A DNA stretch of 64,000 nucleotides, from the sequence record OZ035800.1, one strand, 5' to 3'. This stretch comes from Felixounavirus LF82P5. Both the position numbers and the translations under genes were made by a program. Numbering within the stretch: the stretch's first letter is position 1; each line of letters opens with the position of its first letter. The notes beneath the pieces are model-generated. The model was not told where the DNA came from. It worked only from the letters and a program-made list of their open reading frames with translations, and did no database searches. Shown here piece after piece: positions 3,959-62,854 of the stretch.

Positions 3959-5305
3959 ATGAGTTCGAATATCTTCAGACTTGCTGATAGATTATTCAAC
4001 CAACCTTTACTAGCCACTGAATCATTAGCTCACTCAGCAGCAACTTATGTGAATAACAGATTGCTGGGTGATGTCCAAGCAGCAGTAAACTTTGATAAAC
4101 CCAAAGGTGAAGCAAGAAGTCTTTTAAAAGTGAAAGATGACATTGCTATTATCCCTATTATGGGTGGTTTAACCCATCGTATGACATTCATTGATGCAAT
4201 GTGTACAGGTGGATTAAGCTCTTATGAAGGTTTGCGTAGAGGCTTTGACGAAGCTTTAGCAGATGAGTCAATCAAGACTATTGTTCTGCACATCGATTCT
4301 GGTGGTGGTGAAGCTTCAGGTTGCTTTGAATTAGCACGTCACATTATGGCTTCAAGAGGCCAAAAGAAAATTATTGCTTATGTAGATGAGTTCGCTTGTT
4401 CCGCTGCATACGCTCTTGCATCTTCTGCTGAAGAAATTATTGCATCACCAGATGCAGATGTTGGTTCTATTGGTGTAATCATGGTTCATCAGGAATTAAC
4501 TAAGGCATTTGAAAAGAATGGCGTAACAATTAACGTCATCAAAGCTGGTGAGTTTAAAGGTATGGGTTCACCATTCCAAGCACTTTCAGAAGAAAGCAAA
4601 GAAAGACTTCAAAAGAGAATTAATGATACCTACGCAACCTTTACAGGTTTTGTAGCTGAATCTCGTAATCTCTCTGAAGAAGCTGTAAAGAATACTGAGG
4701 CGAATGTTTATTCTGCTCAGGAAGCTCTTGAACTTGGTTTAATTAACTCAATCATGTCTCAAGATGATTTCTTAAATTACTTACAAGGTTCTGAAGAGGC
4801 TCCTGTAAGTTTAAACGTTAACAATTCAGGTGAAGAAATGACTGAACAAGAAAAGCAAGAACTAGAAGCTTTGCGTCTTCAGGTTGCTCAAATGAAAGCT
4901 AAAGAACAGGAAGCTGCTTTGTCAGATTTGACTAATAAGATTTCTGCTTCTGCTGAAGCTTTTGGGTTTGATGCAAAAGAAGCTGCAACGACTATTTTAG
5001 GTGCTGGTCTTGATAACCCTCTGAGCGTTCTGTTTATGAATGCTATGGAAGGTGCTAACCAGAAACTTAATGAAACTATCGCGTCCCATGCTTCTGCAAT
5101 GGAAGAAAAAGAATCAGAAATTACCAAGCTGAAAGAAACTGCTGGTGCTGTTCTTGAACATTCTAATGCTATGGAAGAAATGGGTAATGACGGCGAAGCT
5201 GATTTGGTTGAAGAAGAAAAAGAACCAGCTAAGAATGCTTCCGAAGACACCGCTGAACAACGCAAACTGGCTCTCCAGAATGCTCTAAAATCTCTTATCA
5301 AATAA
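3959..5305 (+). CDS. Prohead protease (S49/SppA-like) fused to acidic coiled-coil scaffold-like C-terminal domain
   Basis: N-terminal region with IIAYVDEFACSAAYALASSAEEI resembling S49 peptidase core; C-terminal 170 aa E/A/K-rich; position between portal and capsid as in lambda C/Nu3. Confidence 0.6.
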   Translation: MSSNIFRLADRLFNQPLLATESLAHSAATYVNNRLLGDVQAAVNFDKPKGEARSLLKVKDDIAIIPIMGGLTHRMTFIDAMCTGGLSSYEGLRRGFDEALADESIKTIVLHIDSGGGEASGCFELARHIMASRGQKKIIAYVDEFACSAAYALASSAEEIIASPDADVGSIGVIMVHQELTKAFEKNGVTINVIKAGEFKGMGSPFQALSEESKERLQKRINDTYATFTGFVAESRNLSEEAVKNTEANVYSAQEALELGLINSIMSQDDFLNYLQGSEEAPVSLNVNNSGEEMTEQEKQELEALRLQVAQMKAKEQEAALSDLTNKISASAEAFGFDAKEAATTILGAGLDNPLSVLFMNAMEGANQKLNETIASHASAMEEKESEITKLKETAGAVLEHSNAMEEMGNDGEADLVEEEKEPAKNASEDTAEQRKLALQNALKSLIK

Positions 5306-5316
5306 GGAACACAATA

Positions 5317-5694
5317 ATGGCATATGAAGGTTTTACTCACTTAGGTAAAAGAGAACCTCTGAATGATATCATTCTTTGGGAACAGGTTACCCCAACAGGT
5401 CACTCTCGCAAAGAGTACACTCCAGTTGCTTCAACAGAATACCGTGTAGGTGAAGTCCTGAAAGCAGATGGTACTAAAGTTGCAGCAGGGGAAGAAGCTC
5501 AGGCTGATTCTGTATGTATCGTTAACTTTTACGCAGACCTACAACTGTCTTACCACGGTCAGTTGAAAGTTGTTGGCATTTACCGTGACGCAGAACTAAA
5601 AGACCTGCTTACTCTTGAATCAGGTGTTGATGCTGATGCAGTCAAGACAGCTCTGGCTGCTAAAGGTATTGATTTCGTACCAACTGGCCTGTAA
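5317..5694 (+). CDS. Head decoration-like protein (by position)
   Basis: 125 aa ORF between protease-scaffold and major capsid gene. Confidence 0.35.
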   Translation: MAYEGFTHLGKREPLNDIILWEQVTPTGHSRKEYTPVASTEYRVGEVLKADGTKVAAGEEAQADSVCIVNFYADLQLSYHGQLKVVGIYRDAELKDLLTLESGVDADAVKTALAAKGIDFVPTGL

Positions 5695-5727
5695 TAACAA
5701 TAATAAGACATTCTGGAGAATTTTACA

Positions 5728-6831
5728 ATGTTGACTAATTCTGAAAAAAGCAGATTTTTCCTTGCTGACCTGACTGGTGAAGTCCAGTCTATCCCAAATA
5801 CTTATGGGTATATTTCCAACTTAGGTCTATTCCGTTCAGCACCAATCACCCAAACTACTTTCCTTATGGACTTGACTGATTGGGATGTTAGCTTGCTTGA
5901 TGCGGTAGACCGTGATAGCCGTAAAGCAGAGACTAGCGCACCTGAGCGTGTTCGTCAAATCAGCTTCCCAATGATGTACTTCAAAGAAGTTGAAAGCATT
6001 ACTCCTGATGAGATTCAGGGTGTACGTCAGCCAGGCACTGCAAACGAACTGACTACTGAAGCTGTAGTACGTGCCAAGAAGCTGATGAAGATTCGTACCA
6101 AGTTCGATATTACTCGTGAGTTCCTGTTTATGCAAGCTCTGAAGGGTAAAGTTGTTGATGCTCGTGGTACTCTGTACGCTGACCTGTACAAGCAGTTCGA
6201 CGTTGAGAAGAAGACTATTTACTTTGACCTTGACAACCCTAATGCTGACATCGATGCTTCTATTGAAGAACTGCGTATGCACATGGAAGATGAAGCTAAG
6301 ACTGGCACTGTAATCAACGGTGAAGAAATTCACGTAGTTGTTGACCGTGTATTCTTCAGCAAACTGACTAAGCACCCTAAGATTCGTGATGCTTATCTTG
6401 CACAGCAGACTCCGCTGGCTTGGCAACAGATTACTGGTTCTCTGAGAACTGGTGGTGCCGACGGCGTTCAAGCTCACATGAACACTTTCTACTACGGTGG
6501 CGTTAAGTTTGTCCAGTATAACGGTAAGTTTAAAGACAAGCGTGGTAAGGTTCATACTCTGGTTAGCATTGATGGTGCTGGTGCAGACGTTGGTGTAGGG
6601 CACGCTTTCCCTAACGTATCTATGTTGGGTGAAGCTAACAACATCTTTGAAGTTGCATACGGCCCATGTCCTAAGATGGGTTATGCAAATACACTTGGTC
6701 AGGAACTATACGTATTCGAATACGAAAAAGACCGTGACGAAGGTATTGACTTCGAAGCTCACTCTTACATGCTGCCATACTGTACTCGTCCTCAGTTGCT
6801 GGTAGATGTTCGTGCTGACGCTCAAGGCTAA
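5728..6831 (+). CDS. Major capsid protein (by synteny)
   Basis: 367 aa ORF with GGAG RBS, after protease/decoration genes. Confidence 0.6.
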   Translation: MLTNSEKSRFFLADLTGEVQSIPNTYGYISNLGLFRSAPITQTTFLMDLTDWDVSLLDAVDRDSRKAETSAPERVRQISFPMMYFKEVESITPDEIQGVRQPGTANELTTEAVVRAKKLMKIRTKFDITREFLFMQALKGKVVDARGTLYADLYKQFDVEKKTIYFDLDNPNADIDASIEELRMHMEDEAKTGTVINGEEIHVVVDRVFFSKLTKHPKIRDAYLAQQTPLAWQQITGSLRTGGADGVQAHMNTFYYGGVKFVQYNGKFKDKRGKVHTLVSIDGAGADVGVGHAFPNVSMLGEANNIFEVAYGPCPKMGYANTLGQELYVFEYEKDRDEGIDFEAHSYMLPYCTRPQLLVDVRADAQG

Positions 6832-23196: not shown

Positions 23197-23568
23197 ATGA
23201 AGTGGCTAGAGGAAGCTTTTAAAAATAATATTGGTGCAATTGTAGTTGGTATTTTTAGTGTTATTGGGATGTATACCACTATGCAAGTTTCAAGTGGTAA
23301 GCAAGAAGTGTCTGTCACAACAAAGTTACAGCAGCTAGATAATTATTCCAAAAGTAACTATTCAGCTATTCGTGATTTACAGTCTGACATGAGACTGATT
23401 CAGCTAGGGATGGAGAACCAGAAAGTTCAGTTAGAGAATGTTAAGGGTGAAAACGCAAAACTTACCAAAACTCTTGATAAATTCTCTGACAGTGTGAATA
23501 ATCTGGCTCAATCAGTATCAGCCCTCCAAGCTATTACTGAAAAGAACACAAAGAATACTGAAAAATAA
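23197..23568 (+). CDS. Single-pass membrane protein with coiled-coil domain (holin/antiholin or spanin-like candidate)
   Basis: 123 aa; one TM helix NIGAIVVGIFSVIGMYTTM then Q/L/N-rich coiled coil; last gene before bidirectional terminator. Confidence 0.4.
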   Translation: MKWLEEAFKNNIGAIVVGIFSVIGMYTTMQVSSGKQEVSVTTKLQQLDNYSKSNYSAIRDLQSDMRLIQLGMENQKVQLENVKGENAKLTKTLDKFSDSVNNLAQSVSALQAITEKNTKNTEK

Positions 23569-30393: not shown

Positions 30394-30630
30394 TCACTCA
30401 ATAACCGTAGTATGTGATTGTCCATTTTTGCCATAGCTGTAAGATGTTGTTGTTTGAGAGTTTGGACATCTGACAACAACAATATCTCTGCTTATAGCAT
30501 CACCATGTAACTTGTATACTCTGCAATCTTGCATCTCTGGTGGGAGGCTATAAGAAGCATTTTTATCTTCATAAGAAGGGTTGCAGCCAGATAGAAAAAT
30601 AACACCAAGCGCAATTACCACTTTCCACAT
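30394..30630 (-). CDS. Small lipoprotein (candidate superinfection-exclusion protein)
   Basis: MWKVVIALGVIFLSGC signal peptide with lipobox LSGC; AGGAG RBS 7 nt upstream of ATG 30630. Confidence 0.55.
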   Translation of the reverse strand: MWKVVIALGVIFLSGCNPSYEDKNASYSLPPEMQDCRVYKLHGDAISRDIVVVRCPNSQTTTSYSYGKNGQSHTTVIE

Positions 30631-60328: not shown

Positions 60329-60877
60329 ATGAAGAAATTGATTCTAGGTTTGTGCTTAATGTTTACAGCACACTTATCTTATGCAGTTGACTGCCCAGAG
60401 CTATCAATTAGCCAAAAAGTGAACATGTTAAAAGCTTACCAGTATGGTGAGAATAACATGGGTAAAGGTTGGGGTATCACTCTAGCAGCTATAGCCTTAC
60501 AAGAGTCAGAGTTAGGTCTGAAGGTAGAAAATAAAAAGACCCATGACTATGGTATCTTCCAGAATCACTTGAAGACTGTTGTAAAGCGTAACAAAATTAG
60601 TCCTAATGTTGCTAAAAAGAAACTCTTAAAAGACTTTGACTATGCTGCGAAGGAAACTCACAAAGAGCTTGAGTTTTGGACAAAGGTGCATGGTCAGCCA
60701 AAGTCAAAGAAGACTTTACAAAAAGTTTTAGCATCATATAATGCTGGGTATTCGTACAGAATCCCTAAAGCTAAGAAATATTCTCAAGATGTCTATAACA
60801 ACATGAAAGTTATTGCTCAATGTGAATTTGCAACAAACATTTCTAAGGTAAACCATGAAAAAATTAAAAAAGTCTGA
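60329..60877 (+). CDS. Secreted lytic transglycosylase (SLT domain) - candidate endolysin
   Basis: Signal peptide MKKLILGLCLMFTAHLSYA; SLT motifs ALQESELG (catalytic Glu-Ser), YGIFQ, ASYNAGYSY. Confidence 0.6.
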   Translation: MKKLILGLCLMFTAHLSYAVDCPELSISQKVNMLKAYQYGENNMGKGWGITLAAIALQESELGLKVENKKTHDYGIFQNHLKTVVKRNKISPNVAKKKLLKDFDYAAKETHKELEFWTKVHGQPKSKKTLQKVLASYNAGYSYRIPKAKKYSQDVYNNMKVIAQCEFATNISKVNHEKIKKV

Positions 60878-61550
60878 TGAAGTACTGTGTCATGCTTACG
60901 ACTTACATCCTCATGAGTTAGGTCTTGATTCCTGTGTATGGACTCCAGAACAGTGTAGGGATTTTGAAGACACTGCAAGAGAAGTTGTATGTTCACTCGA
61001 AGAGTTCCACACATCAGAACCAATTGTGAATGTTGTAGATAAAGAGACTGGACAAACTATAGGTGTAAGTCGTGATAGCTTAGTCATAGTCAATAAAGAC
61101 CTTGTAGAAAAAGGGAATCTCATCTTAGCAGATATTGATGGTGTTCTTACAAATTTTAATCACGAAGATTGTTCAACGGAATTGACTGACGGTTCATTCT
61201 CGCAGTACACTAATCTTCTTGACTCTGTAAGAGCAAAACCAACGTATGTTTTCAATATCATTGATGCAATTGCTAATCATGCTGCTGTTGGACTCTTGAC
61301 AGCGAGAGGTGAATCTCAGAGAATACCTACTGAGATGTTTTTAAGGCATAACACAGAGCATGACTACATGCTTTTTATGCGTGGTTTTGGGACTAACTCT
61401 ATAAGCGCAGAAAGTTTGAAAGTGAGGATGATTCAGTCTTGCATTCTGCCTTACTTTAATATAGTATGTTTTATAGAAGACACAGAGAAGAATGTGCAGA
61501 AGGTGAACAGAATCCTTCCACACATTAAAACCATGTTAGTTAAACATTGA
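60855..61550 (+). CDS. HAD-superfamily hydrolase-like protein (possible nucleotidase/phosphatase)
   Basis: Motif I LILADIDGVLTNF (DxDG), later GLLTARG and FIEDTEKN; overlaps SLT gene end by 23 nt. Confidence 0.4.
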   Translation: MKKLKKSDEVLCHAYDLHPHELGLDSCVWTPEQCRDFEDTAREVVCSLEEFHTSEPIVNVVDKETGQTIGVSRDSLVIVNKDLVEKGNLILADIDGVLTNFNHEDCSTELTDGSFSQYTNLLDSVRAKPTYVFNIIDAIANHAAVGLLTARGESQRIPTEMFLRHNTEHDYMLFMRGFGTNSISAESLKVRMIQSCILPYFNIVCFIEDTEKNVQKVNRILPHIKTMLVKH

Positions 61551-62036: not shown

Positions 62037-62058
62037 AGGCTCCTTCGGGAGCCTTTTT
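62037..62058 (+). terminator. Rho-independent terminator upstream of spanin genes
   Basis: Stem GGCTCC/GGAGCC, TTCG loop, TTTTT. Confidence 0.75.
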
Positions 62059-62077
62059 CATTTTAGGAGATTGTTAA

Positions 62078-62425
62078 ATGACATTTAAAGAGTTCTGTCA
62101 AGCTACTTTCATAATTGTTTTCTTAGTTGGTGCAGGTGTCTGGGGAGGATACTCTTACAGAGACTATCAAGTTGCTGAAACTGAGCTAAATAATGAGAAA
62201 CTAATAAGTGTTGCTAAAGATGCTTATCAGGAAGGTTTAGCCACACTCAGCACCAATTACAAAAATGATTTGAAAGATGTGCTTGCTAAGAATAAGCATA
62301 CAAAAGAGGTACTAACATATGAAAAAACTAAGCCAGAGTTTTATAATGTTTGTGTTACTGATAACTATGTCAGGGTGTTCAACGAACAAAGTGAGCAGTA
62401 CATTCAAAAACTCCCAAGTAAGTGA
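62078..62425 (+). CDS. i-spanin (inner-membrane spanin subunit) candidate
   Basis: N-terminal TM FCQATFIIVFLVGAGVWGG then charged helical periplasmic domain; o-spanin gene starts inside it in another frame. Confidence 0.55.
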   Translation: MTFKEFCQATFIIVFLVGAGVWGGYSYRDYQVAETELNNEKLISVAKDAYQEGLATLSTNYKNDLKDVLAKNKHTKEVLTYEKTKPEFYNVCVTDNYVRVFNEQSEQYIQKLPSK

Positions 62426-62588
62426 GGGTGATAAGTACACCCAAGAAGAATCACGGTATATCATCAAAGGCAACACAGGCAGCGATGTAGCAGCAGCCCT
62501 TGAGTTCTATCGTGACGGCTTTTACCAGTGCACAATCAAAGCTAACAACCTTATTGACATGATTTTATTAGGGAATAAGCAGCAATGA
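62319..62588 (+). CDS. o-spanin (outer-membrane lipoprotein spanin subunit) candidate
   Basis: Lipoprotein signal MKKLSQSFIMFVLLITMSGC with lipobox; GAGG RBS; overlaps i-spanin 3' end. Confidence 0.55.
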   Translation: MKKLSQSFIMFVLLITMSGCSTNKVSSTFKNSQVSEGDKYTQEESRYIIKGNTGSDVAAALEFYRDGFYQCTIKANNLIDMILLGNKQQ

Positions 62589-62854
62589 CAGAGAATCAAG
62601 ATACTTTTTACGTAGAAGGGTACTTACTGTTACCACGACCAAAAGAGACTTATATGCGAATTGATTTCTCACCAACCATTATGGATAATGTGATGTGCCA
62701 TATCTTTATGCAAGGTGTCACAGCACAGCTTAAACATGTTGGTAAAGAGTGCAAAATAAAGGTTGACACTCATCCAGAAATCAAAGAGAATCACTACACA
62801 TGGTTCTTACCAGATTCTAAAGAAATCTTAGCAGTTCTTAAAACGAGGAAGTAA
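62585..62854 (+). CDS. Hypothetical protein
   Basis: 89 aa ORF. Confidence 0.4.
   Translation: MTENQDTFYVEGYLLLPRPKETYMRIDFSPTIMDNVMCHIFMQGVTAQLKHVGKECKIKVDTHPEIKENHYTWFLPDSKEILAVLKTRK

Follow-up and report, generated by a model that had tools for sequence, protein, structure and literature searches.

A probable two-component spanin encoded by overlapped genes in the Felix O1-like myophage LF82P5

The two overlapping open reading frames at positions 62078-62588 of the Felixounavirus LF82P5 sequence (record OZ035800.1; the window in this study is the whole stretch of 64,000 nucleotides analyzed) very probably constitute the spanin genes of a Felix O1-like myophage, a two-component system in the overlapped arrangement. 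The first ORF, of 115 amino acids (aa), would be the inner-membrane component (i-spanin) and the second, of 89 aa, the outer-membrane lipoprotein (o-spanin). An earlier note, made from the sequence alone, had already proposed an overlapped two-component spanin in this region, and the proposal was borne out by the GenBank annotation of ekra and other identical or nearly identical phages, by the match of the i-spanin to PHROG 1152 ("Rz-like spanin"; E 8e-42), by a SpaninDB entry and by comparative codon tests. The generic definition of two-component spanins applied here is that of Kongari et al. (2018; PMC6139136) and, reportedly, of Summer et al. in 2007. It must be stated that the pair, although real and highly conserved, is already known, through GenBank annotations and the curated SpaninDB, and since it is already catalogued and annotated it must be considered an ordinary one.

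Both genes lie on the plus strand and start with ATG. The i-spanin gene (62078-62425, 115 aa) was assigned from the ORF list, hydropathy, PHROG 1152, the ekra annotation and its near-identity to a SpaninDB entry, while the o-spanin gene (62319-62588, 89 aa) was assigned from its ORF, lipobox, match to PHROG 4180, near-identity in SpaninDB and codon-position pattern. Because its start is 241 nt inside the first ORF, the second ORF is read in the +1 frame. The dual-coding overlap is 107 nt long (62319-62425, plus strand) and comprises i-spanin codons 81-115 with the stop codon and o-spanin codons 1-36, after which the 89-aa ORF extends 163 nt beyond the i-spanin stop; the earlier description of a second ORF that begins at 62319 in another frame and passes the stop of the first was exact in these coordinates. 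Each gene is preceded by its own Shine-Dalgarno (SD) sequence, AGGAG located 8 nt upstream of the i-spanin ATG (62065-62069, plus strand) and GAGG located 9 nt upstream of the o-spanin ATG and within the i-spanin coding sequence (62306-62309, plus strand), and the same two are given in SpaninDB for Felix O1. The sequence AAAGAGGT ahead of the o-spanin ATG was invariant in 30 distinct relatives. At the other end of the pair, the o-spanin stop codon overlaps the start of the next gene in an ATGA junction (62585-62588, plus strand) that is kept in Felixounavirus, Mooglevirus and Suspvirus. That next gene (62585-62854) is outside the spanin module, and the genes 3' of the o-spanin differ in Hafnia phage Zyzzx and Erwinia phage phiEa21-4.

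Directly upstream of the pair, the terminator scan revealed a Rho-independent terminator (62037-62062, plus strand), whose hairpin (62037-62054) has a 7-bp stem (AGGCTCC/GGAGCCT) and a TTCG loop and is followed by the T-tract tail TTTTTCATTTT. Its sequence is identical to that of terminator t5 of Felix O1 (5291..5316; PMC3185647). A t5-type terminator was kept in 28 of the 30 distinct relatives, and in phiEa21-4 an annotated terminator is also located directly before the i-spanin gene. The terminator hairpin ends 23 nt upstream of the i-spanin ATG, and no recognisable promoter emerged when these 23 available nt were scanned. Therefore, transcription of the spanin genes presumably depends on read-through of t5, which fits the transcript detected for the corresponding Felix O1 gene, ORF6. 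The neighbours of the pair are early/middle-type genes (rIIA, rIIB and a phosphatase).

The i-spanin contains one hydrophobic segment, the TMD (residues 6-24, FCQATFIIVFLVGAGVWGG; nt 62093-62149, plus strand), with a Kyte-Doolittle 19-residue maximum of 1.75, and in this regard the N-terminal transmembrane helix attributed to the 115-aa ORF stands. Beyond the TMD, a polar predicted periplasmic domain of 88 residues spans positions 28-115, and the protein would be oriented N-in/C-out. It has two cysteines, Cys7 and Cys92, of which the latter (codon 62351-62353) is found within the C-terminal motif EKTKPxFxNvCxxDxYVRvFNE; Cys92, Asn90, Tyr97 and Asn102 were invariant in this motif across ten divergent pairs. 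A Pfam scan of ten divergent family members gave no match for the i-spanin, nor did its family profile match any of the PDB sequences. The single-sequence AlphaFold2 model was all helix, and its mean pLDDT of just 48.7 was too poor for use. In SpaninDB, 58 of the 88 residues of the Felix O1 domain are given as helix, with no predicted coiled coil; the Moogle i-spanin has a predicted coiled coil at residues 52-79 (PMC6139136).

With respect to the o-spanin, its N terminus (MKKLSQSFIMFVLLITMSG↓CST) displays a basic n-region (MKK), a hydrophobic h-region and the lipobox T-M-S-G↓C. Residues 1-19 constitute the predicted signal peptide and Cys20 (codon 62376-62378) the putative lipidated residue, followed at +2 by Ser and not by Asp, in agreement with outer-membrane sorting. 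The lipoprotein signal with a lipobox Cys that had been recognized earlier in this frame was thereby confirmed. The mature part has 70 aa, no proline and one further cysteine, Cys71 (codon 62529-62531), within the motif G.tG....alEfYrd.y.C....N.LId, and across ten divergent relatives the lipobox Cys, Gly54, Cys71, Asn76 and Leu78 were invariant. Distant o-spanins carry an extra 'C...LPxL' segment with prolines, in place of which the Felix O1 group has a stretch free of Pro and Cys. The protein matched PHROG 4180, with no assigned function, at 1e-49, and PHROG 456 ('Rz-like spanin') only weakly, at 0.002. When the family profile was compared with the PDB sequences, the only matches were to the BamE signal peptide (E > 0.2). 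From the single-sequence AlphaFold2 prediction, one of five models reached a pLDDT of 73 but had the signal peptide built into a sheet, which made it unusable.

Scanning of both proteins against Pfam and NCBIfam yielded sub-threshold noise only (SH3b_T, NAGLU_N and generic lipoprotein signals), and the searches of PDB sequences found no solved relative of either. Each protein has a single periplasmic cysteine, Cys92 in the i-spanin and Cys71 in the o-spanin, and the check for such residues that had been suggested earlier showed both to be invariant over all ten divergent pairs. This fits the near-universal presence of periplasmic cysteines described for spanins (PMC6139136).

Over the segment 61900-62700, identity to Escherichia phage ekra and to several further Felixounavirus genomes was 100%, and 325 phage records matched this segment at the DNA level; the window runs colinear with ekra 72502-7877, in the opposite orientation. 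The annotations of the two genes in ekra are i-spanin and o-spanin, and many Felixounavirus records leave the o-spanin unannotated. The proteins showed 98.3% (i-spanin) and 97.8% (o-spanin) identity to p014 and p015 of Felix O1, and 99.1 and 91.0%, respectively, to phage JH2 by tblastn. In SpaninDB (Kongari et al., 2018; PMC6139136), p014/p015 of Felix01 (NC_005282.1; 5330-5678 and 5571-5841) are recorded as an overlapped ('ovl') pair with a 107-nt overlap, which is also the overlap recorded for wV8 and Moogle. According to the same source, p014 has 115 aa, an 88-aa periplasmic domain, one periplasmic Cys plus 'one in TMD' and the SD AGGAG, while p015 has 89 aa, 70 of them mature, a 19-aa signal, the lipobox TMSG and the SD GAGG. 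Thus, the window pair shares with the Felix O1 pair its lengths, overlap, TMSG↓C lipobox, SD sequences, one periplasmic Cys in each protein and terminator t5, and differs from it by two substitutions per protein (E40Q and A55V in the i-spanin; S26N and G37S in the o-spanin). The Felix O1 proteins were placed in the 'JH2' family, which holds 15 i-spanins (including those of phiEco32-like podophages) and 11 o-spanins (PMC6139136), and the window pair is, judging from this near-identity, a member of the same family. In the Felix O1 genome paper, the first gene is ORF6 (5331-5678), a 'membrane protein' with a homologue in phiEco32, and the second is ORF7 (5572-5841) (PMC3185647).

The tblastn searches yielded 402 phage records for the i-spanin and 335 for the o-spanin, each match covering at least 80% of the query. 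Homologous pairs were present beyond Felixounavirus, both within the Ounavirinae (Hafnia Zyzzx and Erwinia phiEa21-4) and outside them, in Gordonclarkvirinae podophages (EP335), in Peduoviridae (Yersinia vB_YenM_324 and Salmonella SI7), in Klebsiella phage e270.1 and in Proteus Gorganvirus 2207-N35; pairwise BLASTP against the SI7 pair gave 7e-15 for the i-spanin and 3e-10 for the o-spanin. All ten divergent pairs share one arrangement, with the lipoprotein gene beginning in the +1 frame within the 3' portion of the TMD-protein gene and extending past its stop. The gene order in vB_YenM_324 and SI7 is holin, endolysin, i-spanin and o-spanin, and in Proteus 2207-N35 the pair sits after the endolysin. 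The pair is inherited as an overlapped unit, with relatives located in lysis cassettes.

The coding status of both frames was analyzed in a comparative set of 33 Ounavirinae copies, 30 of them distinct, belonging to Felixounavirus, Mooglevirus and Suspvirus and with protein identity down to approximately 76%. Both ORFs were intact, with identical lengths and the same ATG starts, in all 33 copies. In the zone coding only for the i-spanin, the fractions of variable sites at codon positions 1, 2 and 3 of its frame were 0.28, 0.19 and 0.78, and in the zone coding only for the o-spanin they were 0.28, 0.15 and 0.84 in its own frame. Within the 107-nt overlap, the corresponding fractions in the i-spanin frame were 0.29, 0.19 and 0.28. 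The third-position excess vanished solely within the overlap and did so in both frames: variable third positions of the i-spanin frame amounted to 62/80 outside and 10/36 inside (Fisher p = 8e-7), and those of the o-spanin frame to 46/55 outside and 10/35 inside (Fisher p = 3e-7). This loss of third-position variation is the signature of two translated frames, and the pattern points to selection on both.

These results bear on the reading of the second frame as a chance open frame with no gene in it, which could be proposed for a short ORF left unannotated by many pipelines. At the 39% G+C of the window, stops make up 5-7% of codons, so that 89 open codons are unlikely to arise by chance. Moreover, the 163 nt past the i-spanin stop display the classic third-position variation in their own frame, coverage of the query was 80% or more in all of the 335 matching phage records, and the start of the next gene overlaps the o-spanin stop. 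The codon-position variation and the stop frequency effectively refute this reading, to which we give practically no credit.

It could also be argued that only the 115-aa gene is functional and that translation of the 89-aa frame begins further downstream, so that its product would be small and would lack both signal peptide and lipid anchor. In this regard, the GenBank records place the o-spanin start at Met17 in ekra and at Val25 in Silverhawkium and DR094, many other records have no o-spanin annotation, and one paper gives DR094 an i-spanin only. However, the i-frame third-position variation was already low over o-spanin codons 1-16 (6/16 in comparison with 62/80, p = 0.0025), and therefore the second frame is under selection from 62319, or from close to it, onwards and not just from Met17. 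In addition, the in-frame alternatives Met10 and Met17 have no SD, in contrast to the invariant GAGG 9 nt ahead of 62319, and the ATG together with the signal M-K/R-K/R-L...SG↓C is kept even in relatives with 30% identity. The 89-aa ORF is intact in the DR094 sequence, and gene callers are known to be biased against overlapped o-spanin starts (Kongari et al.; PMC6139136). For these reasons, Met17 and Val25 were rejected as the true o-spanin start, the start at 62319 is better than several of the GenBank calls, and a frame functioning only from a downstream start is very improbable.

These data have some value for annotation, given that in many Felixounavirus records the o-spanin is missing or has its start placed downstream of the lipobox. 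Two papers claim phages with "only" one spanin; for DR094 at least, this is an artefact of gene calling. Since Felix O1-like phages serve in the biocontrol of Salmonella and E. coli, having their lysis genes right is of some modest applied interest.

Among the known two-component systems, the overlapped prototype is LysB/LysC of phage P2. The window pair resembles it in that the 3' portion of the i-spanin gene harbours the o-spanin start, in the +1 frame, with the o-spanin gene continuing past the i-spanin stop, and in that a TMD protein is paired with a lipoprotein. The lipobox Cys and the C-terminal Cys of LysC and of the window o-spanin align loosely, but the hhalign probabilities were non-significant (2.5% for LysB and 13.8% for LysC) and homology is not demonstrable. 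Likewise, the Pfam LysC family (PF23793) did not match the window o-spanin, and in the scan of ten divergent o-spanins the only matches were two to this family, both weak (8e-4). A further difference is that P2 keeps its spanin genes in the lysis cassette, while the window pair is isolated.

The likeness to Rz/Rz1 of lambda concerns the predicted role and topology (an inner-membrane protein and an outer-membrane lipoprotein that bridge the periplasm) and the periplasmic cysteines. Nevertheless, Rz1 is wholly inside Rz (embedded class), whereas the window pair is of the overlapped class, and Rz1 has an essential penta-proline stretch and 40 aa in its mature form, whereas the window o-spanin has no proline and 70 mature aa. 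No match of the window proteins to the Pfam Rz and Rz1 families was obtained at E <= 0.1, with noise as the only output. Consequently, the pair is not a member of the lambda Rz/Rz1 family. The earlier description of an 'Rz/Rz1-type' overlapped architecture was right as to the overlap, but the Rz/Rz1 label is loose, lambda being embedded and no sequence relation having been detected.

PseT.3/PseT.2 of T4 (117 and 83 aa) resemble the window pair in size, in their remoteness from the holin and endolysin genes and in an o-spanin that is larger than Rz1 and has predicted C-terminal structure (PMC6139136). A polynucleotide kinase/phosphatase-type gene is also located near both pairs. The differences are that the T4 genes belong to the separated class (4-nt junction) and that T4 has no periplasmic Cys in the i-spanin and two Cys in the o-spanin (PMC6139136). 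T4-like phages were absent from the organism tallies, and these tallies only, of the tblastn matches to the spanins.

The topology, lipidation, complex formation, disulfides and lytic role of the window proteins are what we infer by analogy with lambda Rz/Rz1 and T4 PseT.3/PseT.2 (lambda and T4 work summarised in PMC6139136). Through its N-terminal helix, the i-spanin would be inserted in the inner membrane, with its 88-residue, mostly helical domain projecting into the periplasm. The o-spanin would be exported, cleaved by signal peptidase II before Cys20 and lipidated, and the Lol system would then deliver it to the inner leaflet of the outer membrane, given that its +2 residue is Ser and not Asp. 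The conserved Cys-containing C-terminal motifs of both proteins may bind to each other, forming a complex that would span the periplasm through the peptidoglycan mesh, with Cys92 and Cys71 providing disulfide-linked dimers. Once the peptidoglycan had been destroyed by the holin and the endolysin, the complexes would be able to collapse and, by fusing or disrupting the outer membrane, would bring lysis to completion.

In the literature searched, no complementation, lipidation or knockout result was found for any member of the JH2/Felix O1 family, and two papers call for further study. Since no experiment on any member was found, the position of the genes after holin and endolysin in relatives is the strongest support for a lytic role. 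Several observations count against the lytic reading. The neighbours are of early/middle type, there is a terminator upstream and the holin and lysozyme genes are far away; the mature o-spanin is proline-free, whereas the proline-rich region of lambda Rz1 is essential (PMC6139136); and SpaninDB gives no coiled coil for the Felix O1 i-spanin, there is no Pfam or NCBIfam match or solved relative, and the AlphaFold models are poor. An experimental test of the proline-free JH2/Felix O1 spanin family would still be new.

A membrane protein and a lipoprotein might alternatively serve another envelope function from middle times, such as superinfection exclusion or receptor masking, in the manner of T5 Llp or the lambdoid Cor/Bor-type lipoproteins. 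The location of the pair beside rIIA/rIIB, in an early/middle-type block away from the holin and lysozyme genes, would agree with this, as would an o-spanin without the proline-rich character of Rz1 and the fact that the literature searched contained no functional test. Against it, the overlapped unit has been co-inherited across at least five unrelated phage groups, and the compact genomes of Peduoviridae hold the pair in the exact spanin slot, as the Proteus phage does after its endolysin. Furthermore, no exclusion lipoprotein is known to require an overlapped partner in the inner membrane that carries a matching conserved Cys motif. As to the timing of expression, the Felix O1 ORF6 transcript was maximal by RT-PCR at 25 min and not at 60 min, which would suit an envelope function, but the recognised lysin gp35 belongs to the same 25-min class (PMC3185647); ORF7 was outside the RT-PCR set (PMC3185647). 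It must also be considered that the T4 spanins are likewise far from t and e (PMC6139136). On balance, an envelope function other than lysis is improbable.

Within the preferred interpretation of the pair as a lytic spanin, it is conceivable, if rather unlikely, that the JH2/Felix O1 type is a mechanistic variant that would use a heterotypic disulfide linking the i-spanin to the o-spanin, or a folded 'handshake' domain, instead of the homotypic disulfides of lambda and T4, and in which the upstream terminator might meter expression by read-through. The basis for this idea is a proline-free and maybe folded o-spanin, together with sole invariant periplasmic cysteines located in the most conserved C-terminal motifs. 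With one invariant Cys in each C-terminal motif of a proline-free family, a heterotypic link could be possible.

Finally, the pair in this phage does not share a lysis cassette with the holin and the endolysin, as spanin genes usually but not obligatorily do. A putative holin of 123 aa with one N-terminal TMD was located at 23197-23568 (plus strand) by tblastn with the ekra 'holin' (match at 23197-23565, 99% identity; PHROG 4038, with no assigned function), approximately 38.5 kb from the spanin genes. The gene taken as the 'lysin' in the earlier note (60329-60877, plus strand) encodes an SLT-like protein of 182 aa with a signal peptide (MKKLILGLCLMFTAHLSYA↓VD) and the motifs QES, GIFQ and SYNAGY. 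Its Pfam SLT match (E = 9e-4, 19.2 bits) was under the 21.3 cut-off, it belongs to PHROG 600 (no assigned function), some records name it 'putative lysin' or lysozyme-like superfamily, and a sequence search against solved structures gave no match. The recognised endolysin of Felix O1 is gp35, a Phage_lysozyme protein (PMC3185647), whose homologue in ekra is located at 82381-82845 (PF00959, 4.9e-40) and for which no counterpart was found in the window. The product of 60329-60877 is not the recognised Felix O1 endolysin. The layout described earlier, with two genes and a terminator between 'lysin' and spanins, was right, but the identity of that 'lysin' was not.

All ORFs of the window were scanned for other lipoprotein signals, and the sole other credible match, at 30394-30630 (minus strand), was rejected as an alternative o-spanin because it has no i-spanin-like neighbour and lies among replication genes. 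With the holin at 23197-23568 and the lysozyme absent from the window, the statement that no single cassette holds the lysis genes proved correct. The Felix O1 genome paper had reported that holin-lysin cassettes are absent (PMC3185647), and in the Moogle announcement the Felix O1-like endolysin, two spanins and putative holin 'are scattered around the genome' (PMC4319497); this dispersal has thus been in print since 2010 and 2015.

The i-spanin gene of the spanin pair (62078-62425) is directly preceded by a strong terminator (62037-62062), which was present in 28 of the 30 distinct Ounavirinae sequences. A terminator is also annotated at the equivalent place in the far more distant phiEa21-4 (1457-1476 of the sequence used here). 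Given that there is no room for a promoter between the terminator and the i-spanin start, spanin expression seems to rely on terminator read-through.

The o-spanins of the distant relatives EP335, vB_YenM_324, SI7, e270.1 and 2207-N35 carry an additional cysteine and an "LPxL" proline motif in the segment that separates the lipobox from the conserved C-terminal motif (corresponding to 62376-62480 of the window). In contrast, the o-spanins of the Felix O1, Moogle and SUSP1 group have lost both of them and the predicted mature protein is proline-free.

It must be noted that, in several GenBank/RefSeq records, the start of the o-spanin gene (62319-62588 in the window) is placed past or within the signal peptide. 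The call begins at Met17 in ekra (4468-4689), at a GTG codon (Val25) in both Silverhawkium (1814-2011) and vB_Si_DR094 (792-989), and at a methionine downstream of the lipobox in vB_YenM_324 (2793-2981). The gene was left unannotated in other records, such as that of ASO1A, and in bumzen the i-spanin alone is annotated. The DR094 paper also reports the i-spanin alone; however, the complete 89-aa o-spanin ORF, lipobox included, is intact in the DR094 sequence.

Apart from the o-spanin gene, only one ORF of the window carries a credible lipoprotein signal, at 30394-30630 on the minus strand (78 aa, MWKVVIALGVIFLSG followed by CNPS...). It belongs to phrog_902, without assigned function, is surrounded by replication genes and is conserved in phages of Vibrio, Acinetobacter and Pectobacterium, among others (584 phage records). 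No i-spanin-like partner was found for it. The gene at 23197-23568 (plus strand, 123 aa), which corresponds to the putative "holin" of Felix O1-like phages, has no lipoprotein ORF close to it. In its product, a single TMD at the N terminus is followed by a long periplasmic tail of coiled-coil-like character, a topology that resembles an i-spanin; the protein belongs to PHROG 4038 (without assigned function) with a faint match to an "Rz-like spanin" PHROG (E = 0.009).

The gene at 60329-60877 (plus strand, 182 aa), which adjoins rIIB, has a product that starts with an apparently cleavable signal peptide and contains all three SLT lytic-transglycosylase motifs (QES, GIFQ and SYNAGY). It is a candidate second exported muralytic protein, separate from the gp35-type lysozyme, which may act as an auxiliary lysin or else as an entry/exclusion factor. 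Felix O1 ORF3 was reported to peak at 25 min (PMC3185647).

The gene at 60855-61550 (plus strand), labeled "polynucleotide kinase" in relatives, probably encodes a phosphatase without the kinase part: its product contains the HAD-type motif DIDGV and matches PHROG polynucleotide-kinase profiles only over the C-terminal phosphatase part (positions 158-282/295), while no match was obtained in Pfam. Its proximity to the spanin genes is similar to the arrangement in T4, in which pseT adjoins pseT.2 and pseT.3.
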